53,646 nucleotides of DNA, from positions 1 through 53,646 of the IMG/VR virus record IMGVR_UViG_3300033004_000003, one strand, 5' to 3'. This document shows positions 1,162 to 51,091 of the stretch, piece after piece; the first letter of the stretch is position 1, and every line of letters starts with the position of its first letter. A program made the translations under genes and the position numbers. Under the pieces are notes generated by a model. The model had not been told where the DNA came from. It saw nothing but the letters and a program-made list of their open reading frames with translations, and did not search any database. This DNA comes from a virus. Lineage: Duplodnaviria; Caudoviricetes.

Positions 1162-1162
1162 G

Positions 1163-2422
1163 ATGTCTGAAGATGCTACGGTTGTTGACCTTGGCTTTAA
1201 GCGCAGCACAGCCAAGCTTGAACAGATGCTCGCAAAGACAGAAAAAAACCAAGTGATTGCTAATGTATCAAATTTGATTTTGATTGTTGGGCATGATCCT
1301 GTTTTGTCGAACTTGTGCGGATATGACGAGTTCCAATGTCTTCCTGTCATCCATCACCCCGCGCCTTCTCCGATAGATGGTGCTCCCGATCTTCCGGGAC
1401 CTTATCCTCGCGCCTGGTCATCTGCCGATGTGTCTCAAATTCAGTCGTATATTCAACGTATTTGGGTGAGTGGTGCAAAAAAAAGCGACGTTGAGGACGC
1501 CATGAACGCCGTGGCTGCATCTAGGCGGTTCCATCCTATCAGAGATTGGCTTGCGGAACTTGAATGGGACTTAGAGCCTAGATTAAATCAATGGCTTAAA
1601 AAAGCGTTTGGTGCAGATGACACGCAATATATTGAGGATGTATCGTCGTGTATCCTCATTGCCGCCGTTCGGCGTATCAGAAGTCCTGGATGCAAGTTCG
1701 ACCATATGCCTGTGCTTGAAGGTGGACAAGGTATCGGAAAATCCACGGCGGTTAAGGTGCTATTTGGCGAAAAATACTTTACTGACAGTTTGCCGCTCGC
1801 TCTTGAGAGTAAGGACGCAGCCCTTGGGCTACAAGGCGCTTGGTGCGTCGAGTTTGCGGAGATCGAACAGTTAATTCGTACGGAAGAGCAAGTCGCCAAA
1901 GCGTTCCTGTCCCGCGCTATAGACCGTTTCCGCGCCCCTTATGGGCGGCAATATCTCACCTATCCAAGGCAGTGCGTGTTTATCGGCACCACCAACGATA
2001 CGGACTATCTACGCGATGCCACGGGAAACCGTCGCTACTGGCCAGTGCAATGCCATTTCGTGGAGATCGGCTGGCTCAACGAGAACCGGGAGCAGTTATG
2101 GGCTGAAGCAGCGGCGCGCGAGGCTATGGGCGAGGCGCATTGGCTAAGCGAACCTGACACAATCCAGCAGGCTAAAGAGGCACAAGAAGACCGTCAGGAA
2201 GAGGATGTGTGGGAAGACCGCGTGCAAAATTATCTGATAGGGCGATGCGAAACCACCACTGCCGAGATACTTACGGACGCCCTGCAAATCCCGGTGGAGA
2301 GGCAGACGAAGCGGGAACAAATGCGAGTGACGAAGATACTCAAAAAACATAGGTGGAAACGTGATACGGTAAGGGTGGGAACTAAAACTAAGAAAATTTG
2401 GCTTTCAGGTGGCAACAAATGA
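1163..2422 (+). CDS. VapE/VirE-family P-loop ATPase (putative replicative helicase)
   Basis: FHPIRDWL.EL.WD, PGCKFDHMPVLEGGQGIGKST (Walker A), FRAPYGR...YPRQCVFIGTTN...LRDATGNRRYWPV. Confidence 0.9.
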   Translation: MSEDATVVDLGFKRSTAKLEQMLAKTEKNQVIANVSNLILIVGHDPVLSNLCGYDEFQCLPVIHHPAPSPIDGAPDLPGPYPRAWSSADVSQIQSYIQRIWVSGAKKSDVEDAMNAVAASRRFHPIRDWLAELEWDLEPRLNQWLKKAFGADDTQYIEDVSSCILIAAVRRIRSPGCKFDHMPVLEGGQGIGKSTAVKVLFGEKYFTDSLPLALESKDAALGLQGAWCVEFAEIEQLIRTEEQVAKAFLSRAIDRFRAPYGRQYLTYPRQCVFIGTTNDTDYLRDATGNRRYWPVQCHFVEIGWLNENREQLWAEAAAREAMGEAHWLSEPDTIQQAKEAQEDRQEEDVWEDRVQNYLIGRCETTTAEILTDALQIPVERQTKREQMRVTKILKKHRWKRDTVRVGTKTKKIWLSGGNK

Positions 2423-5508: not shown

Positions 5509-5926
5509 AAACATCCCAATCCCCGTCGCCGCCCGTAAATGGGACTTCACACAAGCCGAGATTGGCGACAGCGTGGCGTTCATGAACGAGGCGGACGCTG
5601 ACAAGTTTGCCGCCGCTGTTCGCCACTATAGCCGCGTTCACGGCACAGACTGGGGCGCGAAAAAGCTGGCGGCTGGCGAGAAGTGGCGTGTGTGGATCGT
5701 CGCCGGCAGAGGCCGCAAGCCGGTCAAACTGGAGCCGGTCAAGTTGCCAAAACTGCAAGTGTTTGCCGCACCTACGCCGTTGACTGACGAGGATTTGCAG
5801 ATCGTCGTGGACTACCGGCGCGGTGAGGATGTGACGCTAGCAAAGCCAAGACAGTATGAAATGGGCGAGCCGGAGGCGGAAGAAACAACGCCAACGGGGC
5901 GGCGTAAGAGGCTTATTCCGGAGTAA
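5498..5926 (+). CDS. Hypothetical protein
   Basis: TAATG coupling to terL; IPIP...WDF.Q.EIGDSV N-terminus. Confidence 0.65.
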   Translation: MFDKNIPIPVAARKWDFTQAEIGDSVAFMNEADADKFAAAVRHYSRVHGTDWGAKKLAAGEKWRVWIVAGRGRKPVKLEPVKLPKLQVFAAPTPLTDEDLQIVVDYRRGEDVTLAKPRQYEMGEPEAEETTPTGRRKRLIPE

Positions 5927-7572
5927 TGGCTAACCCGGCCATCATGCGCGTGCTCAATGACATGCGCGCGAAGCGGAAGCAGCAAATCAAAGCGGAGTGC
6001 GAGGCGAACTTATATCAGTTCGTCAAGCATTTCTGGCACATTGTAGAGCCTGCAAATCCCCTCATCGAAGGGTGGGTTATGGAGGCCATCTGCGAGCATT
6101 TGCAGGCAGTGACAGAAGGAAGGATACTGCGTCTTATCATCAACGTGCCGCCTGGTTGTTCCAAGTCACTATTATCGTGCGTGTTTTTTCCGGCTTGGGA
6201 ATGGGGCGCAAGGGGCATGACTTCCATACGCTATGCCTCGTTCAGTTACACAAGCACCCTGACTGAGCGTGACAATGGCCGATTGCTCCATTTGATCAGC
6301 AGCCCGCTTTATCAGGAATATTGGGGCGAGCGCCTTAAGGTATTTGGCGGCAAGGTCAAGGTTGAAAACAACAATACCGGGTGGAAACTCGCCACATCCA
6401 TAGGTGGAGTGGGCACCGGAGAGCGCGCGGACAGGTTGTTGTTGGACGATTTAAATAACGTCAAGGAATCTGAATCAAAAGCGATCTTGACCACAACTAA
6501 TCAGTGGATACGAGAGGTTATGCCGACGCGACTTAATCATTTGGCGCGGTCTTCTATCATCGCCATCCAGCAGCGAACGTCAGAGGAGGATTGCACAGGA
6601 ACGCTGGTTGCGGCGCGTGACGATTGGTGTTGGCTCATGGTGCCGATGAAGTACGACCCAATGCGCCATTGTAGCACGGAGATTGGCTGGTCTGATCCGC
6701 GCACGGTCGAAGGAGAGTTGTGCTGGCCAGAGCGGTTTCCGCCTGATGAGGTCGCCAAACTAGAGCGCGAAATGGGGCCTTACGCTTGGGCCGGCCAGAT
6801 GCAACAATCCCCAAGCCCGCGCGGCGGCGGAATTATCAAGACCGAATGGTGGCAGGACTGGCCGTCCAAGCAAACCCCACCGCTGGATTACATCGTGGCA
6901 TCTCTCGATACCGCCATGACTGAAAAGGAAGAGAGCGACTATTCCGCGCTGACGGTCTGGGGCTCGTTCCAGGATAGCGGCGCGATCATAGGCGACGAGT
7001 TCGGCGGTTATGACTTTGTGGCCAGCAACGAGCCGCGCGACCGAAGTCTGTTCGGCCAGGAAAGCCGAGAGCGCATGTCTGTTGTGTCAGCTTCTCTGCC
7101 AAAGATATTGTTGCTGAATGCCTGGCGGGAGCGGCTGGGACTGCCGGAGCTGGTGGAGAAGGTTATTTCAACTTGTATCCGTTACCGGGTGGACGTTTTA
7201 ATTATCGAAAATAAAGCACACGGCCATGCGGTTAACCAGACTATACGCGAAATGCTTGCAAGAAAACCCTTTAGCGTTGTAATGTATGATCCGCGTCAAT
7301 ATGGCGACAAATCCGCGCGTCTATACTCGATACAGCATTTGTTTTCTGAGGGTCTGATATATGCTCCGTTGGAGAAAGCCTGGGCAGATATGGTGATCCA
7401 AGAGGTTGCGAACTTCCCGCGCGCCAAGAATGATGACCTAGTTGACACCGTGAGCCAGGCGCTCCAGCACCTACGACAGCGCGGTTTCGCGCCTCGCCGT
7501 GAGGATGCTGTATCTGGCGTTACCGATCGTCTGCGCCACAAGGGGACGGCTAAGCCGCTGTATAACACATGA
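5926..7572 (+). CDS. terL: Terminase large subunit
   Basis: LIINVPPGCSKS (Walker A), GERADRLLLDD (Walker B), RNase H-like nuclease SLDTA...DYSA...IIENKAHG...FPRAKNDDLVD. Confidence 0.95.
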   Translation: MANPAIMRVLNDMRAKRKQQIKAECEANLYQFVKHFWHIVEPANPLIEGWVMEAICEHLQAVTEGRILRLIINVPPGCSKSLLSCVFFPAWEWGARGMTSIRYASFSYTSTLTERDNGRLLHLISSPLYQEYWGERLKVFGGKVKVENNNTGWKLATSIGGVGTGERADRLLLDDLNNVKESESKAILTTTNQWIREVMPTRLNHLARSSIIAIQQRTSEEDCTGTLVAARDDWCWLMVPMKYDPMRHCSTEIGWSDPRTVEGELCWPERFPPDEVAKLEREMGPYAWAGQMQQSPSPRGGGIIKTEWWQDWPSKQTPPLDYIVASLDTAMTEKEESDYSALTVWGSFQDSGAIIGDEFGGYDFVASNEPRDRSLFGQESRERMSVVSASLPKILLLNAWRERLGLPELVEKVISTCIRYRVDVLIIENKAHGHAVNQTIREMLARKPFSVVMYDPRQYGDKSARLYSIQHLFSEGLIYAPLEKAWADMVIQEVANFPRAKNDDLVDTVSQALQHLRQRGFAPRREDAVSGVTDRLRHKGTAKPLYNT

Positions 7573-7751
7573 AACAGCCCGCTTTCACCGGGCATTGGTA
7601 TGCGCCTGAACAGCTAGGCTACGTGCGCGTGCCAGAGAAATGCACAGCCAAGGTTGAAGTCTACCGCGCGCCGGATGGCAAAATGCGTGAATGGGATGCC
7701 GAAAAAGGCCGTCCGCTGGTATTTGTTGACGATAATGCGGGGATTAGATGA
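7569..7751 (+). CDS. Hypothetical protein
   Basis: ATGA coupling between terL and portal. Confidence 0.6.
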   Translation: MKQPAFTGHWYAPEQLGYVRVPEKCTAKVEVYRAPDGKMREWDAEKGRPLVFVDDNAGIR

Positions 7752-9961
7752 GTTCTACACTAGGCGACCTCCTGGCATCCGCGAACATTCGGCAAACCCC
7801 CGCGCCGATTGCCGCGTTGCCACAACCTGATCTTGAGATTGCCATTGAAGGCGATGTTGCAGACCATAAGCTGGACCCGAAAACCGGCGTTATGGAGATC
7901 GAGGGGCCTGACGGAAGCATTACCATCGACTTCGCCCCTAATTTGGGCGGCAAGCTGTCCGACAAGTTCAACGACAATCTGGCTGTCTCGGGGAACATTG
8001 AATACGGCGCTCTGGCTAATGAGCTGATTAACGAGATTGATAGCGATCTAGGCTCTCGCTCCGAATGGATGGACCAGCGCGAGCAAGGGCTTGAATTGCT
8101 TGGTCTGAAGATCGAGAACCCACGCGGCGATACGGGCAATTCATCCGCGCCGCTTGAAGGCATGAGCACCATTCGCTCGCCTACGCTGCTGCAAGCCGTG
8201 CTGCGGTTCCAGGCCAATGCGCGCGGTGAATTGCTGCCAGCCATGGGGCCGATCAAGGTCATTGATAATTCGGCGGGCGGAACTGGCATTGCCGACGAAT
8301 GGGCGGAAATCCTAGAGCAAGACCTGAATATATACCTGACGCAGCGTTGCCCGGAGTATTATCCTGATACTGACCGCATGCTGTTCTATGTCGGTTTCGG
8401 CGGTTCTGGGTTTAAGAAGGTCTACCATTGTCCGCTGCGTCGCCGCCCTGTGTCCGAGAGCGTTGATGCGGCTGATCTGATCGTTGACGCCTCCGCTACC
8501 GATCTGCGCAACGCACGCCGCATAACGCATCGCATCCGCATGAGAGATAGCATGGTTAAGCGCATGCAGATTGCGGGAATTTACCGCGATGTTGCGTTAT
8601 CACAGGCCAGCTATAATCCAGATCAGGACGAAGTAATCGAGGCGCGTATCCAGGGCATCGACGTGATGCCGCAGCGGCCAGAGGACAACGACCGAACGAT
8701 CTATGAAATTCTGTGCGAGCGAGACTTTGGCGAGCATCCCAACCGAATGCCGCTGCCGTACAAGATCGTTCTTGACCGCGATAGCCAACAAGTCTTGGAA
8801 ATCCGCCGCAACTGGCGCGAAGACGATCCGATGTACATGCCGGTTAATATGTACGTGCGCTATCCGTACATCGAAGCAATGGGCATTTATGGCCTTGGCT
8901 TGCTGCATACAATCGGCAACCTGACAAAAGCCACGACGGCTGCTATCCGTGAAATGCTGGACGCCGGTATGTTCGCCAACTTCCCCGGTTTTGTGTACTC
9001 CGAGGGTGTCAATAGGCAGGAAACAAACGAGTTCCGTATTCCGCCAGGCGGAGGCATGCGCGTGCAGACGAACGGGCAGGACATCCGCACCGCATTGATG
9101 CCGTTGCCGTACAAAGATATATCTTCTGGGCTCATGTCGCTTGTTCAGGAGCTAATGAGCGCCACAGATAAGCTATCCGGCACGGCGGAAATGCCAACCG
9201 GCGAAGGTATGCAGAACGCGCCAGTAGGAACGACGCTGGCGATTATCGATCAGGCGTCTAAGGTGCTCGATGCCGTACATAAGCGTCTCCACGCGGCGCA
9301 GGCTGAAGAGTTCCGGCTGCTGAAAGATCGCCTTCTGGAAGACCCGGAGGCGTTTTGGCGCCATAATCCGGACGCCAGCACGAACTGGGACAAAGAGACG
9401 TTTGTCCAAGCTCTGAACCTGGTTGATCTGGTCCCGGTTGCGGACCCGAACACGCCGACGCATACGCACCGTCTGATGAAGGTCATGGGACTGATCCAGC
9501 TTGCCCAGCAGATGCCGCAAATGTTCAACATTCCAACTGTCATCGAGCATTCGCTGCGTCTGATCGGGTTCAACAATCCTAAAGAGTTCATGAACGACGG
9601 CACCCAGCCGCAGCAGCCCAATCCGGACATGATGAAGGCGCAGCTTGAACAGGCCAAACTACAGCAGCAGGGGCAAATCGCGGCGGCCAAGATGCAATCC
9701 GAACAGAACAAGTCTAAGTTGGAGCTTATCAAGGCTCAATTGCAGCAGAAAACCGACGTGATGGAAATTCAGGGCAAGCAGCAGATAGAAGCCGGATGGC
9801 TGCAGATCGAGGCAGGACGGCAGCGCCACGAAAAAACAAAGGATGGCGCTGCAATGGTTAGCGATGCTATGGAACACATGCAACCGGGATTGGGCGGATT
9901 GGCCGCTCCACCGCAAGCCGCGAGCGCCGGCCCTAGCGCTCCTGTTGGAGTGACACCATGA
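7748..9961 (+). CDS. Portal protein (P22-like, Gln-rich C-terminal barrel)
   Basis: Position after TerL; GSGFKKVY, YGLGLLH, LDAGMFANFPG, APVGTTLA...HKRLH motifs; coiled-coil tail. Confidence 0.9.
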   Translation: MSSTLGDLLASANIRQTPAPIAALPQPDLEIAIEGDVADHKLDPKTGVMEIEGPDGSITIDFAPNLGGKLSDKFNDNLAVSGNIEYGALANELINEIDSDLGSRSEWMDQREQGLELLGLKIENPRGDTGNSSAPLEGMSTIRSPTLLQAVLRFQANARGELLPAMGPIKVIDNSAGGTGIADEWAEILEQDLNIYLTQRCPEYYPDTDRMLFYVGFGGSGFKKVYHCPLRRRPVSESVDAADLIVDASATDLRNARRITHRIRMRDSMVKRMQIAGIYRDVALSQASYNPDQDEVIEARIQGIDVMPQRPEDNDRTIYEILCERDFGEHPNRMPLPYKIVLDRDSQQVLEIRRNWREDDPMYMPVNMYVRYPYIEAMGIYGLGLLHTIGNLTKATTAAIREMLDAGMFANFPGFVYSEGVNRQETNEFRIPPGGGMRVQTNGQDIRTALMPLPYKDISSGLMSLVQELMSATDKLSGTAEMPTGEGMQNAPVGTTLAIIDQASKVLDAVHKRLHAAQAEEFRLLKDRLLEDPEAFWRHNPDASTNWDKETFVQALNLVDLVPVADPNTPTHTHRLMKVMGLIQLAQQMPQMFNIPTVIEHSLRLIGFNNPKEFMNDGTQPQQPNPDMMKAQLEQAKLQQQGQIAAAKMQSEQNKSKLELIKAQLQQKTDVMEIQGKQQIEAGWLQIEAGRQRHEKTKDGAAMVSDAMEHMQPGLGGLAAPPQAASAGPSAPVGVTP

Positions 9962-10687: not shown

Positions 10688-11110
10688 ATGGCTACGACGC
10701 ATATGCTTCATGCGGTGGACCCGCGCACTGATCTGCAACACAAGATCGGCGATATCAGCCACATTCGGGTGCTTCACAATCAGGTTCTGGTGGCGACTTA
10801 TGTTCGCCCTGAGCGCACTTCTGGCGGCATCATCCTCGCCCAGTCAACGCGCAAAGAGGACGAATATCAGGGCAAGGTTGGCCTTGTCATCGCCAAGGGG
10901 CCGATGGCCTTTCGGGACGATGACCGCACGCAATTTCACGGGCAGGACGTGCAGATTGGCGAGTGGATTTCATACCGCATGTCTGATGGCTGGCAGCTTA
11001 TCGTGAAAGGCAAGCCGAGCGCGGAAAATCCCAAGGGCGAATATCACTGCCGCATGTTGCAGGACGTGGACATTAAGGCGGTGATTTCTTCACCGGATGA
11101 CGTGCTGTAA
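10688..11110 (+). CDS. groES: Phage co-chaperonin GroES-like protein
   Basis: LHNQVLV...ERTSGGIILAQ...GKVGLVIAKGP...VQIGEWI...RMLQDVDIKAVI. Confidence 0.85.
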   Translation: MATTHMLHAVDPRTDLQHKIGDISHIRVLHNQVLVATYVRPERTSGGIILAQSTRKEDEYQGKVGLVIAKGPMAFRDDDRTQFHGQDVQIGEWISYRMSDGWQLIVKGKPSAENPKGEYHCRMLQDVDIKAVISSPDDVL

Positions 11111-13853: not shown

Positions 13854-14768
13854 ATGCCTATTAATCTATCCTCGATCAAGAACGAACTGCTCCCCGGCCT
13901 TCGCGCTCTTACCGGCAAGTATGATCAAATCCCCCGCGAGTGGGACCAGATTTTCGACGTCGGTAAATCTGAGATGGCCCTGGAACGCACCGTCGAAATG
14001 GCGTACCTCGGCTATGCCCAGCTCAAGACCGAAGGCGCGGCTACCACGTTCGACAACTCGGCCGGCGAGCGCTTCACCTACAACCAGGAGCACACCGAGC
14101 TTGCGCTTGGTTACGCCATCACCCGCAAGGCGGTGGACGATAACCTCTACAAGCGCCAGTTCAACCCCGCCAACCTGAACATGATGCAGTCGTTCAATCA
14201 GACGCAGGAAATTCTTGCGGCGAACGTGCTGAACACTGCCGGCGTGTACAATGCGGCTGTGGGCGGTGACGGCGTTTCTCTGGTTAACGCCAGCCATCCG
14301 GTTGATGGCGGCACCTACTCCAACACCTTCAGCACGGCGGCTGATCTGAACGAAAGTTCCCTGCTGAACGCGATGATCCAGATCCGTACTGGCTTCGTCG
14401 ATCAGCGCGGCCTGAAGCTTTACGCCCGTGGCCGAAAGCTGGTCATCCCGCCGCAGCTTGAGCCGACTGCTCTGCGCCTCATCAAGACCGCGCTGCGCCC
14501 CGGCACCGCCGACAACGACATCAACGCCATCATGTTCACTACTGGTGGTCTGAAGGACGGCTATCTGGTCGATGACTACCTGACCAGCCCTTATGCCTGG
14601 TTCCTGCTGACCAACATCCCCGGCCTGCTCTACCTGGAGCGCGTGCCGTTCGAGATGGATATGCAGGTGGACTTCACCACAGATAACCTTCTCGTGAAGG
14701 GCTATCACCGGTACTCCTTCAGTTACTACAATCCAAGGGCCATCTTCGGCACCTTCCCGACCTCGTAA
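13854..14768 (+). CDS. Major capsid protein (HK97 fold)
   Basis: 304 aa; KTEGA...ALGYAITRKA.DDNLY...DGVSL...HP...DL.ESSL...KLVIPPQL...YLTSPYAWF; strongly biased codon use. Confidence 0.9.
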   Translation: MPINLSSIKNELLPGLRALTGKYDQIPREWDQIFDVGKSEMALERTVEMAYLGYAQLKTEGAATTFDNSAGERFTYNQEHTELALGYAITRKAVDDNLYKRQFNPANLNMMQSFNQTQEILAANVLNTAGVYNAAVGGDGVSLVNASHPVDGGTYSNTFSTAADLNESSLLNAMIQIRTGFVDQRGLKLYARGRKLVIPPQLEPTALRLIKTALRPGTADNDINAIMFTTGGLKDGYLVDDYLTSPYAWFLLTNIPGLLYLERVPFEMDMQVDFTTDNLLVKGYHRYSFSYYNPRAIFGTFPTS

Positions 14769-16345: not shown

Positions 16346-17050
16346 ATGAGCAACACTCTCGGAGGCATGTCGGGCACATATAACTTCTCGCCCGCCTCTT
16401 CGCAGCTAATCCTCTATGCGTTTGGCCGGTGCGGCATACGTGGCCCGCAGTTGCAGGCCGAGCATATGCGCGACGCTTACACCGCCATGAACATGATACA
16501 GGCGGACTGGTCTAACGATCAGGTAAATCTCTGGACCGTCGAGCTTATCACCGTGCCTCTGGTATACGGCCAGACGGCCTATACAGTCCCCAGCAATGTC
16601 ATTCTGATCCTCGATGCCTACCTGGAAATGAACCCAGGCACATCGGACCCGATTGATCTCTATATGTATCCGATCAGCCGCACGGAATACGCGGCATTTC
16701 CGGACAAGGTGACGCCAGGCCGGCCAACGGTCTATTGGTTTGACCGCACGCTGTCGCCAAGCGTGTATCTGTGGCAACCGCCAGTAGATGCGTCGTGGAC
16801 GTTTAACATGTATTGTTGCCGTCAGATACAAGACGCGAACACGCAGAACCTGCAACAGCCGGAAATTCCGTATGGCTATCTCAAGGCGTTTTCCGATGCC
16901 TTGAGCGTTGAACTGGCCATGATCTATGCGCCGGATAAGGTGCCGATGCTGCAAGCCGCCGCCGCCGCGTCTTACAAGCGCGCCAAGGACATGGGTAGCG
17001 AGCGGGCTTCGTTGTACCTGTTCCCAGGCATGGGGAACTACTACAGATGA
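16346..17050 (+). CDS. Head-tail adaptor protein (putative)
   Basis: MNMIQADWSN..VNLWT...ISRTEYAAFPDKVTPGRP...YLWQPP. Confidence 0.7.
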   Translation: MSNTLGGMSGTYNFSPASSQLILYAFGRCGIRGPQLQAEHMRDAYTAMNMIQADWSNDQVNLWTVELITVPLVYGQTAYTVPSNVILILDAYLEMNPGTSDPIDLYMYPISRTEYAAFPDKVTPGRPTVYWFDRTLSPSVYLWQPPVDASWTFNMYCCRQIQDANTQNLQQPEIPYGYLKAFSDALSVELAMIYAPDKVPMLQAAAAASYKRAKDMGSERASLYLFPGMGNYYR

Positions 17051-21609: not shown

Positions 21610-22353
21610 ATGGCCTATAACTACACCCAATACCAGGTCAAACTTGGAACCCTAATGGCGCTTACGAGCGCCAATCCGGCATCGCCGCCGACTGATCCGT
21701 ATTTCGCGCAGATTTTGCCGGCGTGTATAGATTACGCTGAGCAGAGGATTTACCGCGATCTCGATATCCAGAGCACGACCACAGATGCGACAATTTATAC
21801 GACTGCCGGAACGCCGCTTGTAAGTCTGCCGTCTAATCCTCTAGTTTATGTTGTGGAGAGCATGAGTGTGGTGACGGTTGGTGGCAACGCGCCTTCAATC
21901 ACCGCGCAAACCAACATGAGCCCGGTTGATAAGAACTTCCTGACTGCCACATTCCCGCCTGCGTTCTGGTCTACGGCGCAGGGGATGCCGCAATACTACT
22001 ATATACAAGATCAGAACATCGCCTATATAGGGCCGACGCCTGATCAGGTCTACGGGCTGTACATCGTTTACACGTATCGTCCGACGACGCTTAGCGCGAC
22101 AAACACGACGACGCCGCTTACGCAGATATGGCCAGATTTGTTCTTGGCGTGCAGCATGGTATTCATGAGCGGATACATGAAGAATTTCGGTGCGCAATCC
22201 GACGATCCGCGCATGGCAGGCTCGTGGGAAGCGCAATATCAAGCGTTGCTCAAAGGCGCACTTGAGGAAGAGAGCCGCAAGAAATCGCTCGGAATTGTAT
22301 ACACGCCTCTGCGTGCTGCTGCGTTCAGCGGCAAGCCTACTCAGGCGCAGTAA
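21610..22353 (+). CDS. Tail adaptor/tubular protein (putative)
   Basis: IDYAEQRIYRDL...GMPQYYY...IGPTPDQVY...Y.YRP.TLS...WPDLFLAC. Confidence 0.75.
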   Translation: MAYNYTQYQVKLGTLMALTSANPASPPTDPYFAQILPACIDYAEQRIYRDLDIQSTTTDATIYTTAGTPLVSLPSNPLVYVVESMSVVTVGGNAPSITAQTNMSPVDKNFLTATFPPAFWSTAQGMPQYYYIQDQNIAYIGPTPDQVYGLYIVYTYRPTTLSATNTTTPLTQIWPDLFLACSMVFMSGYMKNFGAQSDDPRMAGSWEAQYQALLKGALEEESRKKSLGIVYTPLRAAAFSGKPTQAQ

Positions 22354-24377
22354 TGCCCATAGCCTCCGTTAAACTCCGCCCCGGCGTTGACGTAGAGCGG
22401 ACCTTCACGCTGAATGAGGCGGGGATTAGCCAGACGCAACTCGTGCGGTTTAAAGATTCACTAATTCAATCAATCGGCGGATGGGTCCAGTGGTATTCCC
22501 AAACTCTGCCATACGCGCCGCGCGTTATCCTTAGCTGGACAGACCTTAACGGCACCGTTTACACGGCAGTAGGGACGTCAAGCGATATTTACGTTATTAG
22601 CGGAAACACGGCGACTGACTTAACGCCAACCAACATTATCGAGAATGTCGCGCCCGAGTTCTCGACGGTTGCAGGGTCTAACGTTGTTACCGTGGACGCA
22701 TCTGGCACAACTCCGATTGTCGGCCTTGGTATATTCATCAACACCCCCGTTTCTGTTGGCGGCATCATCCTGATGGGTGGCTATACAATCGAAGCGCCGG
22801 TTTCCGGTGGTAATTACACGATCACGGTAGCGAACAACGCCACATCGACCGTGAATAATGGCGGCTCTGTGGCGCAATACACGACGACGATGGGCAGCAC
22901 GGCCATCAATGTCATGCTGAATAACCACACTGAAACTTTAGGCTCGCAGTGGACCGAGAAAGTATCTACTTCCGTTGGCGGAATCACGGTTTCGGGCAAT
23001 TACATCGTCTCAGCGATTGTTGACGCAAATAACTTCACGATCAATTCCACGTCTCCCGCCACATCTAGCGCGTCGGCTTATGAAAACGGTGGATTAGTCC
23101 AGACAGTCTATTACCAGAATGCCGTACCACCCACGCTACCAAACTACGGTTATGGCGTTGGCGGATATGGCCTCGGTGGCTACGGCCAGGGCAGCGTTTA
23201 CGTGCCGACTTCGCCTATCTCCGCACCGCTGTGGACGCTGGATCATTGGGGCGAGACGCTGTTGGCTTGTCCTGGGAGCGGCCCTATCTACTCATGGACG
23301 CCGGGGTTAGGAGAAACGACGCTCCAGATAATAGCCAATGCGCCTGCGGTCAACGGCGGCATCTTCGTGGCCATGCCGGCGCAAATCCTTGTGGCATGGG
23401 GCAGCAGCATAAATGGCGTGCAGCAGCCTAACCTTGTGCAGTGGAGCAATCAGCTCGATTACACAGACTGGACGCCTACAGTGACTAATCAGGCCGGAAA
23501 CGCGACGATCCCAACGGGAAGCCGGATCGTCGGGGCCATACAGGCTCCAAACCAAGCGCTGATATTCACGGATATTGACGTTTACGCCATGAACTATCTC
23601 GGCGCATCTGGCAATATCCAGCTTGTGTTCGGGTTCAACCAGATCGCCAAGGGCTGCGGACTTATCGCGCCTCGCGCCGTGGGTGTGCTGAATGGCTCTG
23701 TATTCTGGCTGTCTCCTGGGCAGTTCATGACGCTGGGACAGAGCGGCGTTGTTCCTATGCCATGTCCGGTATGGGATGAAATTTGGCAGGACTTGGACAC
23801 AAACAACCTGAATAAGATCATCGTCGCGCCGAATAGCGTGTTTAACGAAATCGCGTGGTATTACCCTTCGATTTCTGGCGGCACAGGTGAGAATGATAGC
23901 TACGTTAAGTTTAACATGCTGGAAAACGCATGGGACTACGGAAAACTTGTCCGCACGGCCTGGCAGGACTATTCGGCGGCTGGCAATCCATTGGGCGGCG
24001 ATGCTTCTGGCTATCTGTGGCAGCATGAGGTTGGGCAAACCGCAGGCGGCCAGCCCATGAATTGGAGCTTCAGCACTGGCGCGTTCATGATTGCGGAAGG
24101 TGACCAGATGGCTTTTGCCGACTGGATTTTGCCGGACATGCGATATGGGTTCATAAACAACTCGTCCACAAATCAGAATGTGTCTCTAGTTGTGTCGTCT
24201 TACCGATACGCGAATGACGCCCCCGTCACGTCTCCAACGCTGACAATGACGCCACAAGGAAACGGAGAGTTGTCTCTACGCATCCGAGGGCGTGCGATGC
24301 AGCTTACATTCAGTGGGAATGGTTTTGCCCGCATCGGCAATGTGCGCTATCGCTGGGCACCTGATGGGAAATACTGA
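22353..24377 (+). CDS. Tail nozzle/stabilization protein (P22 gp10/T7 gp12-like, putative)
   Basis: VKLRPGV...VRFK...IGGW; WTLDHWGETL; VQWSNQ.DY.DW; RIRGRAMQL. Confidence 0.75.
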   Translation: MPIASVKLRPGVDVERTFTLNEAGISQTQLVRFKDSLIQSIGGWVQWYSQTLPYAPRVILSWTDLNGTVYTAVGTSSDIYVISGNTATDLTPTNIIENVAPEFSTVAGSNVVTVDASGTTPIVGLGIFINTPVSVGGIILMGGYTIEAPVSGGNYTITVANNATSTVNNGGSVAQYTTTMGSTAINVMLNNHTETLGSQWTEKVSTSVGGITVSGNYIVSAIVDANNFTINSTSPATSSASAYENGGLVQTVYYQNAVPPTLPNYGYGVGGYGLGGYGQGSVYVPTSPISAPLWTLDHWGETLLACPGSGPIYSWTPGLGETTLQIIANAPAVNGGIFVAMPAQILVAWGSSINGVQQPNLVQWSNQLDYTDWTPTVTNQAGNATIPTGSRIVGAIQAPNQALIFTDIDVYAMNYLGASGNIQLVFGFNQIAKGCGLIAPRAVGVLNGSVFWLSPGQFMTLGQSGVVPMPCPVWDEIWQDLDTNNLNKIIVAPNSVFNEIAWYYPSISGGTGENDSYVKFNMLENAWDYGKLVRTAWQDYSAAGNPLGGDASGYLWQHEVGQTAGGQPMNWSFSTGAFMIAEGDQMAFADWILPDMRYGFINNSSTNQNVSLVVSSYRYANDAPVTSPTLTMTPQGNGELSLRIRGRAMQLTFSGNGFARIGNVRYRWAPDGKY

Positions 24378-24676
24378 TGACTTCTGACAACACCTTCCAA
24401 AACCAGACTAACACTACCAACAAGATACTGGCGCAGATGCTTACTACGCTGCAAAGCGTGGCGGTTGTTCCCGCCTCAACTGCTGGCGCCGTTGGGAGCT
24501 ATGCTATGGCCAAATCTACCGCAACCGTGGCGTTCGGTTCTACCGTGTCTGGATCATCGCTAACGCCGTCCAATGCTGCCGGATCATCCGTTGGATCGGC
24601 GCTTACCGGAACGTGGCGTTGCATGGGGACAATCGGAAGCTCTGGCGATGTCTCTTTGTTTGTCAGAACGGCGTAA
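24377..24676 (+). CDS. Small tail protein
   Basis: AVGSYAM...GSSL...GTWRCMG...LFVRTA fibre-tip-like motif. Confidence 0.65.
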   Translation: MTSDNTFQNQTNTTNKILAQMLTTLQSVAVVPASTAGAVGSYAMAKSTATVAFGSTVSGSSLTPSNAAGSSVGSALTGTWRCMGTIGSSGDVSLFVRTA

Positions 24677-24719: not shown

Positions 24720-25250
24720 ATGTCTGACGCTATAGCCAAGGCGCTGCGGATAGCGCAAAAGCCGATTTGTCGCGCTGATGGCGGGGCTGCCAGCGCTGCG
24801 GATACCCGCGTTTCAGATGGCGTCTATTTTGGACACGGTTTGCTTAAATCATCCGGTTCTGGCCGCACGGATACGCTGCCCATTAACGTGCCGTCCGGCG
24901 CGTATGTCTTGCCCGCTGATATCGTGTCAGGTCTTGGGCAGGGCAACACCTTTGCAGGCGGTAAAATCCTGGATCGCATTTTTGCGGATATGCACCACGA
25001 GGCGCAGGCGCAAGGTGCAGCAGGGCAGCAAATGGGCGAACACAAAGGCGGACGTGCGCAAAGCAAAACCGGCGCGAATGTCCCTATCATCGCAGCGGGG
25101 GGCGAGTATATCATACATCCAGATGTCGTGCGGCATATTGGTGGAGGGGATATGAAGGCTGGGCATGAGTGGCTTGATGGGTTTGTAAAGGACGTCAGGA
25201 CTAGAACCCACAAGACGCTGGCGAAACTCCCTGGACCGGCAAAGGATTGA
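24720..25250 (+). CDS. Protein with duplicated D.lP...GeYvl.adiV..lG.G domain
   Basis: GRTDTLPINVPSGAYVLPADIVSGLGQG and NVPIIAAGGEYIIHPDVVRHIGGG. Confidence 0.8.
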   Translation: MSDAIAKALRIAQKPICRADGGAASAADTRVSDGVYFGHGLLKSSGSGRTDTLPINVPSGAYVLPADIVSGLGQGNTFAGGKILDRIFADMHHEAQAQGAAGQQMGEHKGGRAQSKTGANVPIIAAGGEYIIHPDVVRHIGGGDMKAGHEWLDGFVKDVRTRTHKTLAKLPGPAKD

Positions 25251-25252
25251 GC

Positions 25253-25723
25253 ATGAGCGAAGTCCGCATAGCAACGCCAGCCGACCGTGACGGGATGATT
25301 GATCTGCTGCACATGATGTACGCCGAAAATGGCGTTGCGTCATTGAGCGTGCAAAAGATGTTGGCGTTTCTTGATCGAGGGTTAGCGCGCGATTACTCGA
25401 TCATCGGCATTGTCGAAGATGAAGGTGTGATAAAGGCGAGCATTGGGCTTTTCCTGCACCAATGGTGGTACAGTGAAGATTATCACGTTGAAGATACGTG
25501 GTGTTTTGTGCATCCAGATTACCGGAAGTCAACTTATGCCAAGGACTTGCTGAAGTTCGCCAAGAAATGCGCGGATGATCTTGATATGCAACTGCTGATT
25601 GGCATCCTGTCTAGCGAGAGAACTGCGGCCAAGGTTCGGCTTTACGAGAAAGAATTTGGTCCTTCAATGGGATGTGGATTTGTTTACCCGCATCCTCGGG
25701 CAACTGATAAGGAAGTCGCGTAG
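25253..25723 (+). CDS. GNAT-family acetyltransferase
   Basis: VRIATPAD...FVHPDYRKSTYAKDLLKFA...RLYEK. Confidence 0.8.
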   Translation: MSEVRIATPADRDGMIDLLHMMYAENGVASLSVQKMLAFLDRGLARDYSIIGIVEDEGVIKASIGLFLHQWWYSEDYHVEDTWCFVHPDYRKSTYAKDLLKFAKKCADDLDMQLLIGILSSERTAAKVRLYEKEFGPSMGCGFVYPHPRATDKEVA

Positions 25724-28700
25724 TGGGCAAAGGTTCAAGCACGACTACCAGCAAGACGACGCCAGCCCCGCAAGCAGAAGCGATGGGCAACCAGGCATGG
25801 AGCGCGGCGCAGTCTGCGGCGTCTAATCCATACCAATATTACCCAGGCCAGCTTGTCGCCAATCTCAACCCCGACCAGATGCAGGCGTTTAATACCGTCG
25901 CGCAGTCTCAGGGTATTGCAAATCCGTATATCAATGCAGCGTCTCAGCTAACCAGCTCCGCTTCCCAACCAATTGGCGCGTCTCAGATCAATCAGTACAT
26001 GAACCCGTATATCGGGGATGTCGTTGGTACAACCGCCGCCGAGATTAACCAAAACAACGCCATTCAACAGAACCAGCTACAAGGCAACGCAGCGGCACTT
26101 GGCGCCCTCGGCGGCAACCGCGTGGGCATCGCACAGGCGGCGCTCGCCAACCAGCAGGCAATGGCGGAAAATCAGACTTTATCAGGACTGTATCAGGGCG
26201 GATACAATACCGCGTTGCAGGCCGCGCAGACACAGAACGCGCAGCAGCTACAGGGCGCTTACGAATACGCCAACCTTGGTACTGAGGCGCAGACAGCGGC
26301 GCTTACCGGCGCGAACGCTCAAATCCAGACGGGCGGCATCGAGCAGCAACAGCAACAGAACATCCTGAACCAAGCCTATTCGCAGTGGCTTGGAGCGCAG
26401 CAATACCCGTTTCAGACTGGCCAGTATCTCACGAATACGGCGGGTACACTGGCGGGGCTGTACGGTGGGACATCGTCCACGACAATTCCGGCGCCGTCTA
26501 CGTTCTCGCAGATTGTGGGTGGTTTGACTGGCGTTGCTGGTATCGTCGGCGCTGCGCGCGGCTCCAAAGTCGGTGGACGGATTAATAATGATCTCGGCGG
26601 CTTGGATGGATATGACAGCGGCGGGTTTGTCGGGCCTACTCAATTCGCAGGGCCAGAAGCGCCTCCGCCCTATGATCCAAATAAAAACGTTGAGGCTAAA
26701 GCGTTTGGCGGACGTATTGGCTATGACGATGGTGGATTTGTTGGCCCTACGCATTTCTCTGGTCCGCAAGCTCCACCGCCGTATAACCCCAATAAAAATG
26801 TTGAGATGAAAGCCGATGGCGGACGCATTGGCTACGATGGCGGCGGCGGTATCCCGTACCAAATTGGCGGCATACAGGCTCAAGACCTAACTGGGATGTC
26901 CCATCCTGTTGGATATGTATCAAGCGCTGGCACGGCTGGCGCTACACACTTTGCTGGTCCGCAGGCTCCGCAAGGGTACGATCCGAACAAAAATGTAGAT
27001 CAATCTTCCGGTTTGTCGAAGCAACAAGTGACAGATTTGGGAAGCCTATATGAAGGCGCAAAAAATTACATCAATGGAGCATACGGCCCGACGATGGGGG
27101 GAGGCATAGGAGGCGGGACCAGCGATGCAGCCATGGTTGCTCATCAAGGAGGCCAAAAATCAGGAGGTCGTGTAGGTCGCGCATCTGGCGGTCAATCGGG
27201 CAATACGCCTTCCACGGGCGGCTTGTCTGGCCTTACCGCGTCTCTGTCTAACCCGACCATGACAGAGGGGCAGCAGATTGAGAACTACCAATTCCTGTCG
27301 CCAATGATATCAACAGGCCGCGCGCCGGAAGTAGGGCAGCAGCAGCAACAGCAGCAAGAAAGCCCGCTGCAAGAGGAACAAGCCGAGGAACAAACGCTCG
27401 CCTCTATGGCTGGCCATGCTCATGGCGGACGTGCTGCAAAGGCTGGCGGTGGAAGTCTAGGCGCGCTGCCTACGCCGCAATATGTAGGCACTGGCCCCGC
27501 ACAAACGGCCCCGCAGCCGACAAGCACGGCGGGAACGCAACCCACGTCTTGGGGCAATGTGCAGATGCCATCTGCGCCGATGCTGGCGGCTCCTCAAGGC
27601 GCTGCGCCGGGCACGGGACAACTGCCAGCACTCGGCGGACAAGCTGCGCAGAATTTTGCGGCCAGTTACACCGGCTCGCAAGACCCATACGCGGCATACA
27701 TACAGAGCCTTACCGGCGCCAATCCGTCCGCTGGCAACCGTGCGCCGGGAGTGAACGCGACGACTGCATCAGCAACACCCGCAACCACGGTATCTCCCGG
27801 TTTGGCGGCGCTACTCAAGTCTTGGGGGGTTAATGCATCGGGCATGAAGTCTGGCGGTCGCGCTGGCTATGACGTGGGTGGCGATGTAGCGAATACGCCG
27901 CAAGATTTGGGCAGCACTGCCACGCCAGCCCCAGTTACTGCAACGCCAATTCCGGGCGTGTCGCCAGACTACGTTGCCCGCGTAAACCACATCGAGAGCG
28001 GCGGAAATCCTGCCGCGACTAGCTCGACCTCTACAGCTTCCGGCTTGGGGCAGATTACCGTCCCGACTGCTAAAGCGCTCGCCCCCAGTTTGGCTGGACT
28101 AAGTGACCAGCAGGTGCAGAAGATGGTCCAGCAGCCCGCTGTATCCAACGATCTAACTGCGGAGCTTGCCAAGAAAAACGCCGCATATCTCACGGCAAAT
28201 AATCTGCCTGCCAATGACGGAACTGTTTACCTCGCCCACAATTTCGGTGCAGGCGGGGCCAAGGCATTGCTGACTGCTGATCCGAATACACCAGTTGAAA
28301 ACGTGCTGCCGAAAGAGGACATTACGGCAAATCCCGATCTGGAAGGCAAGACAGTCGGACAAGTCATTGCCAGCCGTTATGCCGAAGTTGGCGCGAAAGT
28401 TGCTCAAAACACCGCCCAGCAGCCGAACTACGGTGGGAACCAGACCGCGACGGACACAAGTCCACTGCCTCCCATCGGTGGAGATCAGGGGCTTGCCACA
28501 TATCAGCAACAGGCTGGAAACGCTCAATACAACTTGACGCAGCCGCAACAGACTGAGGTTGACAAGTTTGCTAATTCGCCGTGGATGGCGCTGGCACAGG
28601 CTGGGCTTGCCACTATGGCCGGAACATCGCCGTTTGCGGGGGTGAACATCGGTGCTGGTGGTCTGGCGGGGCTGCAATATCTGCAAAGCACGCAGGGCCA

Positions 28701-29931
28701 AGAGCGCGCCAATGCTGGGTTGCTTGCGAATATCCAGCAGAACCAAGCAGAATTGCAGCAGCGTGGCCTTGGGCAAGTTTTGCAGGGCGTGCAGGCTGGA
28801 CAGAATGAGCAGCAAATCCGCGCCAATCTCGAGCAAACGATTATCAACGCAAATCCTAATTACACTCAGGCTCAGGTTGCAGCGGAAGCACAGAACCTTA
28901 TCAACGCCGTCACAAATCAGAGCGGCTCTCTTGGCTACAATCCGCCTGTCCAGGGACCGCAGATGCCTCCTGGCATTGTTCAGGGCGGCAATGTCACGCC
29001 GGCCACTCCTGCACCGGTTGTTACGCCACAGCCTGCCGCGCCTGCTCCTGCGCCGCAAACGACAACGGGCGCGGTAGGGCCTGCCCCGCAAGCTCCGCAA
29101 CAGCCATATGTTGCCGCTACGCCGCAATTCGCGCAATCCGCAACGGGCATGCCTCCGGTTGGCGCGGCGACGATCGACACGTCTGCGCCGTCTCCGATCG
29201 GCAACGGGACGCTGCCGCTTGCACAGGCGTACCAGAAGGCTCAACAGATGAGCATTGTCCCGCAGCTAAACACTGCGGCACAGTCTTTTTATTCTCGCAT
29301 GGAACCTCTGATGAACCGTCAGGGCGCCGTCGAGTTGCAGAAACAGGGCAACGCAGCCGCGCAGCAGATGCAGAACATGGATGAACTGGCGGCAGAGGCG
29401 GCTCAAATTCATACCGGACCGGTGACGGGGCAGTTCGTCGCTCATGCGGTTCAGGCTTATGAGGATATTTCTAGCGCTTTTGGATTGCCGATTGACCAGT
29501 CAATCACCGCAAGCTCTGACGCAAGCCAAGTTCTGCCGAAGCTCTCCGCAAACCTGTTGGCCACTATCGGGCGCATGGGGTCTGACGTAGGTGGCGCTGA
29601 AACGCTACGTATGATGGGGCCGGCTGTTCCGACGTCCGCAAACACCGTGTCAGGCATCCCGAAACTAGTGCAAGTTTACAATACCATGAGCCAGCGAACC
29701 ATGGCGCTCGGCAACTATGTTAATGCTGCAGTGTCTCAAAATACGATGACTTACGCGCAGGCTATCGGCGCCTTCAACCAGCAATATCCGCCCGCAATGT
29801 GGGCATCGCACGTTACGCCATTGGCGTTACCTGACAATGTTGCCGCGTTGAAGCCTGGTTTCGCTTACCAAGCGAACGGCAATTATGCTATATGGAATGG
29901 GCAGAGCTTCCAACCCATGAGCGGACAATAA
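25723..29931 (+). CDS. Internal virion/DNA-ejection protein with lysozyme-like (SLT) domain
   Basis: MGKGSSTTTS start; YMNPY...ALGGNR; HIESGGNP...ASGLGQIT...YLAHNFGAGGA muramidase motifs; about 12 GG motifs. Confidence 0.8.
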   Translation: MGKGSSTTTSKTTPAPQAEAMGNQAWSAAQSAASNPYQYYPGQLVANLNPDQMQAFNTVAQSQGIANPYINAASQLTSSASQPIGASQINQYMNPYIGDVVGTTAAEINQNNAIQQNQLQGNAAALGALGGNRVGIAQAALANQQAMAENQTLSGLYQGGYNTALQAAQTQNAQQLQGAYEYANLGTEAQTAALTGANAQIQTGGIEQQQQQNILNQAYSQWLGAQQYPFQTGQYLTNTAGTLAGLYGGTSSTTIPAPSTFSQIVGGLTGVAGIVGAARGSKVGGRINNDLGGLDGYDSGGFVGPTQFAGPEAPPPYDPNKNVEAKAFGGRIGYDDGGFVGPTHFSGPQAPPPYNPNKNVEMKADGGRIGYDGGGGIPYQIGGIQAQDLTGMSHPVGYVSSAGTAGATHFAGPQAPQGYDPNKNVDQSSGLSKQQVTDLGSLYEGAKNYINGAYGPTMGGGIGGGTSDAAMVAHQGGQKSGGRVGRASGGQSGNTPSTGGLSGLTASLSNPTMTEGQQIENYQFLSPMISTGRAPEVGQQQQQQQESPLQEEQAEEQTLASMAGHAHGGRAAKAGGGSLGALPTPQYVGTGPAQTAPQPTSTAGTQPTSWGNVQMPSAPMLAAPQGAAPGTGQLPALGGQAAQNFAASYTGSQDPYAAYIQSLTGANPSAGNRAPGVNATTASATPATTVSPGLAALLKSWGVNASGMKSGGRAGYDVGGDVANTPQDLGSTATPAPVTATPIPGVSPDYVARVNHIESGGNPAATSSTSTASGLGQITVPTAKALAPSLAGLSDQQVQKMVQQPAVSNDLTAELAKKNAAYLTANNLPANDGTVYLAHNFGAGGAKALLTADPNTPVENVLPKEDITANPDLEGKTVGQVIASRYAEVGAKVAQNTAQQPNYGGNQTATDTSPLPPIGGDQGLATYQQQAGNAQYNLTQPQQTEVDKFANSPWMALAQAGLATMAGTSPFAGVNIGAGGLAGLQYLQSTQGQERANAGLLANIQQNQAELQQRGLGQVLQGVQAGQNEQQIRANLEQTIINANPNYTQAQVAAEAQNLINAVTNQSGSLGYNPPVQGPQMPPGIVQGGNVTPATPAPVVTPQPAAPAPAPQTTTGAVGPAPQAPQQPYVAATPQFAQSATGMPPVGAATIDTSAPSPIGNGTLPLAQAYQKAQQMSIVPQLNTAAQSFYSRMEPLMNRQGAVELQKQGNAAAQQMQNMDELAAEAAQIHTGPVTGQFVAHAVQAYEDISSAFGLPIDQSITASSDASQVLPKLSANLLATIGRMGSDVGGAETLRMMGPAVPTSANTVSGIPKLVQVYNTMSQRTMALGNYVNAAVSQNTMTYAQAIGAFNQQYPPAMWASHVTPLALPDNVAALKPGFAYQANGNYAIWNGQSFQPMSGQ

Positions 29932-50896: not shown

Positions 50897-51091
50897 ATGG
50901 ATGCTATCGAAGTGATGCTATTATTGAATAAGGCCGTTCGCGATGCTGGATCACAAAAGGCATTTGCCGAACAGTGTGGGATTTCACAACAGTTTTTGCA
51001 TGACGTTCTGAACGCGAGGCGGGCACCGTCAGAAAAAATACTTTCGGTTATTGGCATACGGAAAGTCGTTAGGTTTGAGAGTGTCAAATGA
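50897..51091 (+). CDS. HTH regulator (paralog of 52091-52303)
   Basis: AGSQKAFAEQCGISQQFLHDVLNARRAP. Confidence 0.75.
   Translation: MDAIEVMLLLNKAVRDAGSQKAFAEQCGISQQFLHDVLNARRAPSEKILSVIGIRKVVRFESVK

Follow-up and report, generated by a model that had tools for sequence, protein, structure and literature searches.

What is the role of a small protein, built from two copies of a single unit, whose gene is inserted between the nozzle gene and the ejection gene of a tailed phage? This question is raised by a 176-residue protein encoded in the virus record IMGVR_UViG_3300033004_000003 (Duplodnaviria; Caudoviricetes), which spans 53,646 bases, is complete and carries direct terminal repeats. The record was analyzed over its full length and is referred to as the window. 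Since its late region carries a short-tail (podophage) gene set, the window is considered as a tailed phage of podophage type. The protein under study, hereafter the twin-unit protein, contains two related units, each preceded by a Gly-Gly (GG) motif, and its gene is followed by genes for a GNAT acetyltransferase and for a large ejection protein. From sequence comparisons, our preferred reading, to which we give somewhat better than even chances, is that the twin-unit protein is a cargo-less member of a family of carrier proteins that would be loaded into the virion and ejected from it, the twin unit acting as a constant docking module and the GG(R) motifs as conserved linear tags. Across this family, a constant C-terminal twin unit and a fixed slot in the ejection module are combined with a variable remainder that includes enzyme fusions.

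A sequence-only reading of this locus had described an internally duplicated domain with a GG motif before each copy, next to a GNAT and an ejection protein, and these features were all recovered. The self-alignment of residues 53–91 with residues 121–159 reached a score of 60, against 25.8 ± 4.8 for shuffled sequences, of which 0/500 attained this value. The GG motifs were located at residues 21–22 and 110–111, both sequence stretches quoted in that reading were present in the protein, and the genes for the GNAT and the lytic ejection protein were found directly downstream of the twin-unit gene. The duplication was also visible at the profile level. Using profiles built from 96 homologues, copy 1 aligned with copy 2 over 42 columns (hhalign 97.0%, E 1.1e-10), and the hidden Markov model (HMM) of each copy detected the other copy, with independent E-values (iE) of 0.0035 and 7.3e-5. 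In the reading frame, the unit HMMs matched residues 50–98 and 124–166 with an iE of about 1e-24 each. They detected nothing else below an iE of 0.4 in the six frames of the window, and gave no match outside the twin-unit gene in 81 related loci.

The structure of the twin-unit protein was then predicted with AlphaFold2 from the 96-sequence alignment, with a mean predicted local distance difference test score (pLDDT) of 80.3 and a predicted template modeling score (pTM) of 0.69. Unit 1 was modeled with strands at residues 53–58 and 62–64 and helices at residues 66–72 and 77–101 (block pLDDT of 91–96), and unit 2 with strands at residues 120–125 and 130–132 and helices at residues 134–140 and 145–168 (block pLDDT of 93–97). 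The GG-bearing residues 14–22 and 108–116 had a pLDDT below 50, and conservation of G21 and G22 in the same alignment is 90% or more. The C-terminal tail reads L170-P-G-P-A-K-D176 in the window, L170, P171 and P173 being invariant and G172 at least 90% conserved. Among the polar positions, R49, T50, D51, Y62, D67, S70, E129, D153 and R160 are invariant, and N76, T77 and H149 are at least 90% conserved, in sequences that are only about 45–50% identical. Such a pattern would be expected if the protein were itself an enzyme, for instance one with cell-envelope or nucleotide substrates, whose active site is formed by the invariant polar residues of both units. This is very improbable, as neither an enzyme family nor an enzyme fold was matched, and these polar residues are shared neither between the two units nor with the single-unit sister family presented below. 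What the two units have in common with each other and with the single unit is mainly glycine, proline and hydrophobic residues; the S/T-D belongs to unit 1 only and the E to unit 2 only. Besides, an architecture in which the module is always C-terminal and always last is that of an address module. The twin-unit protein has no family in Pfam, PHROGs or NCBIfam, and no match was found among the Pfam LPD entries, or in sequence, profile and Foldseek searches of the PDB, the last of which gave 0 matches at E ≤ 0.001. In BFVD, only four uncharacterised phage proteins were matched.

The family was delineated by an exhaustive HMMER search, which retrieved 2392 representative clusters at E ≤ 1e-3 and 1548 at E ≤ 1e-10, with 707 homologues near the length of the window protein and 199 longer ones. 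Prophage occurrences were found in a few cultured Alphaproteobacteria and in many metagenome-assembled genomes (MAGs), and the gene is rare in the class of one prophage host, where 2 of 401 sampled genomes matched, one being the host itself. Cultured strains with a prophage copy include Rhizobium lusitanum P1-7 and Opo-234, Rhizobium sp. BK316, Boseaceae BT-24-1 and Acidisoma cellulosilyticum HW T5.17, at loci L098, L101, L102, L108 and L122. All 355 retrieved members carry exactly two units of about 45–50 residues, placed at the C-terminus, with a median of 15 residues from the last unit to the end of the chain. An LPGP-type tail was present in 340/355 members, and the window protein has both units and this tail. 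A GG motif was located at most 45 residues upstream of unit 1 in 337/355 members and at most 25 residues upstream of unit 2 in 318/355. The linker between the units has a median length of 33 residues and exceeds 100 residues in 9/355 members. The rest of the protein is variable: at one and the same locus, the open reading frame (ORF) ranged from 132 to 997 amino acids and exceeded 250 amino acids in 36 of 118 cases, ORF starts being first-start calls that may make these lengths too long.

Fused domains were identified in many relatives, and the description of the domain as stand-alone in the sequence-only reading therefore applies to the window genome only and not across the family. The cargo of these relatives, located before the units or in the linker that separates them, includes an InPase domain (2.6e-50), an ART-PolyVal domain (2e-10) and NUDIX domains (2.5e-18 and 7.4e-19), together with Phage_lysozyme, PG_binding_1, a methyltransferase and a weak LPD23 match. 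In P0201 and P0322, the whole NUDIX domain is located between the two units, and the inter-unit linker therefore tolerates a folded domain. In the cargo-bearing relatives P0312 and P0314, motifs of the R-A-x-GG type flank the inserted domain on both sides. Many relatives have an N-terminus corresponding to DUF6496 (PF20106), illustrated by P0048 (28.5 bits) and P0054 (25 bits) for a cut-off of 24; no literature was found under that name. The window protein has no DUF6496 match and retains a short N-terminal helix, aligned with the end of the DUF6496 region of its relatives. No metallopeptidase domain was found with Pfam in the relatives scanned, and P0138 has an H-E-x-x-H string. According to the passages of Iyer et al. 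(2017, PMC5512222) cited here, InPase, lysozyme and LPD domains are specific to phage-type polyvalent proteins, which are predicted to be packaged and injected. As judged from domain composition, the fusion of the twin unit to domains of the injected-effector type points to a role in virion loading or ejection, instead of the three-gene system proposed in the sequence-only reading, in which the GG motifs would be tags, the twin-unit protein their reader or enzyme and the GNAT their modifier.

The position of the gene was analyzed in 81 viral loci from related phages (the 80 best matches and MW202675) and in 41 loci from bacterial genomes and MAGs. In the viral loci, the order adaptor, nozzle, small gene, twin-unit gene, GNAT and ejection protein is kept, the nozzle being found in 75 loci, the adaptor in 72, the GNAT in 76 and the ejection protein in 59. 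The five viral loci devoid of GNAT end less than 200 nucleotides past the twin-unit gene, and the GNAT start lies within 33 nucleotides of the twin-unit stop in 69 of the other 76. The order and the GNAT were retained in 35/41 loci from bacterial genomes and MAGs. The six genome loci without GNAT include L118 and L120, interrupted by the contig end, L119, on a short contig with 1.3 kb downstream, and L126, which encodes a single-unit protein. The remaining two, L094 and L111, are non-phage contigs (one alphaproteobacterial MAG). The first (L094:3762-10510) carries an integrase, a Toprim/DUF7146 primase, a DUF3987 helicase, two small genes and the twin-unit gene, with no tail genes within 20 kb, and the second (L111:2-4994) carries the twin-unit gene, a TerS-like gene, small genes and an integrase. 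No GNAT, nozzle or ejection gene was found near either copy. Both islands look like phage satellites with a private twin-unit copy; used as query in a search for further satellite-like copies, the island protein matched only itself.

A gene that directly follows those of the nozzle and of a small tail-like protein, with overlaps of 1–4 nucleotides, might also encode a structural plug of the tail lumen or an assembly factor (for head completion, nozzle gating or chaperoning of the ejection proteins) that is not delivered to the host. This is in line with the strict conservation of the extreme C-terminal tail and with a window copy free of cargo, as well as with the unit-bearing C-termini of tape measure proteins (TMPs), which sit at the tail tip and are bound to the hub in the passages cited from a study of lambda (PMC12617516). 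We nevertheless consider this explanation unlikely. Fusions to ART, NUDIX, InPase and lysozyme domains, which have host or cell-wall targets, make little sense for a protein that is not delivered, and the private copies of the satellite-like islands suggest a consumable, injected component.

Further evidence on the unit came from a second family. A search with the second copy gave weak matches in cultured phages, and the unit profiles made two of them clear as proteins with a single unit at the C-terminus: gp22 of Synechococcus phage MinM2 (iE 1e-18; L083) and gp065 of Caulobacter phage GB2A, annotated as “tape measure” (iE 7e-13; L084). The deposited names “tail length tape measure protein” (GB2A gp065) and “calcium-binding protein” (MinM2 gp22) sit on single-unit proteins of the ejection slot, and MinM2 encodes a giant RelA/SpoT-annotated protein two genes after gp22. 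With the GB2A-type domain, at least 1712 proteins were recruited, 319–1015 amino acids long. About 90 C-terminal residues of the single-unit proteins are 70–75% identical, for a total length of 221 to 992 amino acids, and a terminal GGR(I/A/T) was found within the last 8 residues of 119/120 listed proteins and in 79/80 loci. The single-unit and twin-unit profiles aligned with each other (hhalign 98.2%, E 2.8e-14). Among the 80 viral loci of this sister family, an adaptor homologue was located about 3.1 kb upstream in 53, the stop codon coincides with the start of an ejection-protein homologue in 30, and profile search found a GNAT in 0/80. The single-unit family occupies the same gene slot as the twin-unit family. 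A membrane-like hydrophobic segment was found in 87/120 single-unit proteins, against 1/355 twin-unit proteins. The AlphaFold2 prediction of the single-unit relative P0406 was poor, with a mean pLDDT of 57, a unit at 42–78 without strands and tags below 50. Since an isolated unit fails to fold in prediction, we infer that the duplication replaces a dimer of single units: two single-unit chains would pair in the relatives, and the twin unit would unite both halves in one chain.

The unit also extends to long-tailed phages, and the C-terminal regions of siphovirus TMPs, such as lambda gpH/gpHC, T5 pb2C and the TMP of DLP_3, are among the nearest known counterparts. The sequence-only reading had stated that TMPs often contain this motif with a contiguous GG strand, and such a case was identified in the TMP of the siphovirus Stenotrophomonas phage DLP_3 (1254 amino acids), where the single-unit profile matched residues 1121–1165 with 31 bits. 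A GG lies directly before the hairpin, two more GG tags follow downstream and the unit is about 90 residues from the end. This TMP has one unit, and the match covers the tag, the hairpin and the first helix only (profile positions 14–58 of 99). In the window genome, no tube or tape measure genes were found; its phage has no long tail and the 176-residue protein has neither the length nor the position of a TMP, so that only the unit is common to both. The TMP of phage lambda, gpH, was tried as a further family member and rejected, its 2.6–5.1 bits being within the range of shuffled sequences (reaching 9.7). A resemblance in pattern only was observed in gpH (L085), with a tag-plus-hairpin arrangement at residues 726–771 (hairpin-like at 750–771); residues 726–853 hold three GG motifs in the region cut off as gpHC, one of which is within a few residues of the end. 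In the passages cited from the 2025 Ur-lambda study (PMC12617516), the lambda TMP undergoes a cut within its glycine-rich C-terminal region, for which neither site nor catalyst is reported to be known, the last residues of the C-terminal fragment stay bound to the tail-tip hub, and TMPs and podophage ejection proteins both exit the particle ahead of the DNA. From the constant C-terminal unit, the fixed slot, the enzyme fusions, the satellite copies and the homology of the unit with single-unit proteins and a TMP, we therefore infer that the twin unit is a docking address.

The GG motifs were also found free of any unit, as the sequence-only reading had noticed. The 1402-residue ejection protein contains six GGR[IVLA]-x(3-5)-GG tags, against a mean of 0.1 in shuffled sequences, of which 0/2000 reached six. 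They are located at residues 284, 329, 366, 481, 568 and 711, between an N-terminal region matching phrog_4287 “DNA ejection protein” (residues 1–277) and a region matching phrog_4067 “transglycosylase” (residues 731–895), and the unit HMM gave no match in this protein. Its residues from about 284 to 400 also form three repeats of about 37 residues, each composed of a GGR-I tag, a GG-F-V-G-P stretch and a proline-rich segment; Tandem Repeats Finder detected no DNA-level repeat under these protein repeats. Across 61 homologous ejection proteins, A-x-GG-x-[VIL] occurred 126 times, against 27.9 ± 5.2 in shuffled sequences. The nozzle proteins used as a control were enriched too (53 against 15.6), an effect of the sites shared among homologues. 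The density of plain GG was rejected as a hallmark of the ejection protein, with 1.59 per 100 amino acids against 1.35 for the nozzle, and only the specific motifs are enriched. The GG tags are thus real and conserved as linear motifs, and lie in segments for which disorder is predicted.

It could be proposed that the units bind these GG(R) tags by strand complementation, or cleave them, in cis and in trans, the GNAT modifying the tags or the new termini. In a wider version, the unit would be a self-associating or self-processing module common to TMP C-termini. Several observations suit this proposal: nearly every unit has a tag before it; in the single-unit proteins, the tag directly adjoins the hairpin and recurs as the C-terminal end; in relatives, tags flank inserted cargo on both sides; and the neighboring ejection protein, which has no unit, contains six of them. 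The failure of the lone unit to fold in prediction, the cut of the lambda TMP in its glycine-rich C-terminal region and the pattern of gpH 726–771 are compatible with it too. We regard it as improbable all the same. AlphaFold2 docks neither tag on the units and leaves the tag segments at low confidence, no fold resembling that of a protease or of another enzyme was found, and S/T-D in unit 1 and E in unit 2 are not shared by the two units. A tag two residues from the C-terminus would be an odd place for a cut that releases a domain, the GNAT is absent from the sister loci and from the satellite-like islands, the lambda match is not significant (5.1 bits at best), and the motif counts among homologues are non-independent, with an enriched nozzle control. 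The complex predicted between the twin-unit protein and residues 276–395 of the ejection protein, which include three tags, had a score of 0.00 in a run made without controls, and speaks neither for nor against binding. Besides, no peptidase was found among the 27 window proteins scanned with Pfam, many ORFs having no family at all.

A bolder form of the same idea, which appears quite unlikely, is that the 45-residue unit and the GG(R) tags constitute one very widespread, undescribed module common to podophage ejection-module proteins and to the C-terminal fragments of siphovirus TMPs, in which a unit would recognize its own tag or that of a neighboring chain, by donor-strand-like pairing or by cutting. 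If true, this module would set the oligomeric state, the docking and the processing of those proteins that are first to exit the particle. It would also account for the tags around cargo, at the end of single-unit proteins and throughout the ejection protein, and would offer a candidate site and catalyst for the cleavage of lambda gpH to gpH* plus gpHC.

As for the third partner of the proposed system, the GNAT start overlaps the twin-unit stop codon by 4 nucleotides. The GNAT scored 28.9 bits with Acetyltransf_7 (cut-off 27) and 27.6 bits with Acetyltransf_1 (cut-off 20.7), and its closest solved relative was a phosphinothricin N-acetyltransferase, with an E of 0.049 only. The acetyl-CoA loop of GNATs has the motif R/Q-x-x-G-x-G/A. 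The consensus of this loop is R-K-G-G-R-A in 93 homologues, whereas the window copy reads R-K-S-T-Y-A; departing from its family, this copy may bind the cofactor poorly. The co-occurrence of domain and GNAT across loci gave a divided answer: the GNAT is a strict companion in the twin-unit lineage (76/81 viral and 35/41 genome loci) but is not general, with 0/80 single-unit loci and satellite-like islands without it. Hence, a general triad of tag, reader and modifier is unsupported, the companionship being strict only in the twin-unit lineage and the window loop departing from its family. Under our preferred reading, the GNAT would be a lineage-specific accessory, either a co-packaged enzyme or a modifier of ejection-module proteins.

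The features of the window are collected in Table 1. The late-region neighbors abut or overlap by 1–4 nucleotides, the twin-unit gene being included (1–4 nucleotides). In the relative MW202675, the syntenic gene at the nozzle position is annotated “phage stabilization protein” and the homologue of the large ejection protein “internal virion protein D”. The 99-residue product encoded between the nozzle and the twin-unit genes had no sequence homologue among the loci at E ≤ 1e-3, and a gap of about 350 nucleotides is found at its position in most loci. It is a positional small gene that may encode a piece of the tail tip or needle.

Table 1. Coordinates of the twin-unit gene, its parts and other features of the window (aa, amino acids).
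Feature	Position	Strand	Evidence or remark
Twin-unit gene, 176-aa protein	24720..25250	+	ORF, ATG start
GG tag 1, residues 17-23 around G21-G22	24768..24788	+	predicted disordered
Unit 1, residues 44-92: beta-hairpin and two helices, the first short, the second long	24849..24995	+	unit HMM iE 3.6e-24
GG tag 2, residues 107-113, K-GG-R-A	25038..25058	+	predicted disordered
Unit 2, residues 116-162, second copy of unit 1	25065..25205	+	unit HMM iE 7.7e-24
C-terminal tail L-P-G-P-x-K-D, residues 170-176	25227..25247	+	conserved
GNAT acetyltransferase	25247..25723	+	Pfam Acetyltransf_7, Acetyltransf_1; phrog_1249
Ejection protein, 1402 aa, lytic transglycosylase region	25723..29931	+	phrog_4287, phrog_4067
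Tag region of ejection protein, residues 282-722	26566..27888	+	six GGR[IVLA]-x(3-5)-GG tags
Protein repeats of ejection protein	26566-26900	+	three repeats
1029-aa protein			last in listed late region, after ejection protein
99-aa gene between nozzle and twin-unit genes	24377..24676	+	weak PHROG matches, tail fibre family C-termini, E 2.5e-6 to 1.6e-3
Nozzle-type tail protein, 674 aa	22353..24377	+	phrog_3287, E 2.9e-57
SU10-type head-to-tail adaptor	21610..22353	+	Pfam PF24175 SU10_adaptor, E 1.2e-22
Fibre, 1057 aa	18422-21595		
Second SU10_adaptor-family protein, upstream of fibre gene	16346-17050	+	E 3.5e-9
Major head protein	13854-14768		
140-aa protein between portal and head genes	10688-11110	+	Pfam Cpn10 (GroES-like co-chaperonin), E 6.9e-7, 29.7 bits, cut-off 21.1
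Portal	7748-9961		
Large terminase	5926-7572		
Prim-Pol and VapE-like helicase	379-2422	+	
RecT-like recombinase	49775-50596	+	
GIY-YIG/NUMOD3 homing-endonuclease-like gene	51088-51876	+	near right end

The twin-unit protein was compared with known ejection systems. In crAss001, the gene of gp45 (cargo protein C1, PF25725 crAss_CARG1) is immediately preceded by the genes of the tail tubular and muzzle (“stabilization”) proteins, and those of further cargo and giant ejected proteins follow it. In the passages cited from its structural description (PMC10172136), gp45 belongs to the virion: its one compact domain is docked on the portal, its N-terminal part lies in the tail, and it is proposed to be first out. 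By language-model features, crAss C1 was the nearest named cluster, at 0.83 for the twin-unit protein and 0.84–0.85 for the single-unit domain, values below the 0.9 line that make it a lead only. A family relation was rejected: PF25725 (cut-off 27 bits) gave no match at E ≤ 10 in the window, GB2A, MinM2, L126 or L014, for 227.9 bits (2.6e-69) in the positive control, crAss001 gp45 itself. The unit HMMs scored crAss001 gp45 at no more than 0 bits, and no crAss chain was among the 50 matches listed by Foldseek against the PDB. In addition, gp45 has a transmembrane helix, whereas the twin-unit proteins have none. It thus serves as a positional analogue only.

The order and roles of the ejection genes gp14/gp15/gp16 of T7 and gp7/gp20/gp16 of P22 provide a second reference. 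As in these phages, a gene for a small protein just after the nozzle gene is followed by one for a large lytic-transglycosylase protein. Unlike them, the window has a GNAT gene interposed and the twin-unit proteins lack a hydrophobic segment of the pore-former type; no similarity in sequence or fold to T7 gp14–16 or P22 gp7/20/16 was found. A parallel in domain content exists with the polyvalent proteins of Iyer, Burroughs, Anand, de Souza and Aravind (2017), since twin-unit relatives carry ART-PolyVal, InPase, NUDIX, lysozyme and weak LPD23 domains beside virion genes. The window protein, a bare module, has none of these and no Pfam domain, so that the several effectors expected of a polyvalent protein are found in relatives only.

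Several points weigh against a carrier role. No sequence or fold link was found to any solved ejection or cargo protein, and among deposited phage genomes only 2/50,697 matched at E ≤ 1e-3, both uncultured. The loci compared are the best matches per scan, hence related phages and not independent samples, and the length variation depends on first-start calls. The many invariant polar residues would fit an enzyme or a metal site as well. Finally, as the window protein has no cargo, the term “carrier” fits the family and not this particular gene.

According to the proposed mechanism, the twin unit would be an address that docks the protein inside the particle, either in the channel of the nozzle or portal or on the complex of ejection proteins, and the protein and its fused cargo would leave the particle with or ahead of the DNA. 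By comparison with the arrangements of crAss001 gp45 and of the lambda TMP, docking at the portal side or at the nozzle side is possible. The GG(R) motifs before the units and in the ejection protein would be flexible tags, used for docking or for processing by a putative partner.

Proteins injected ahead of the DNA are already known, while their addressing inside the particle is understood for a few model phages only. Among the ejection and cargo proteins of podophages, a system of a known kind, the twin unit defines a new, widespread and unnamed domain family with a presumed role in virion loading. If sufficient for packaging, it would serve as a ready-made handle by which proteins of choice are loaded into phage particles in laboratory systems. 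Besides, the homology of the unit with the C-terminal part of a TMP links the delivery proteins of podophages and siphophages and, together with the GG tags, provides a testable lead on tape measure processing.

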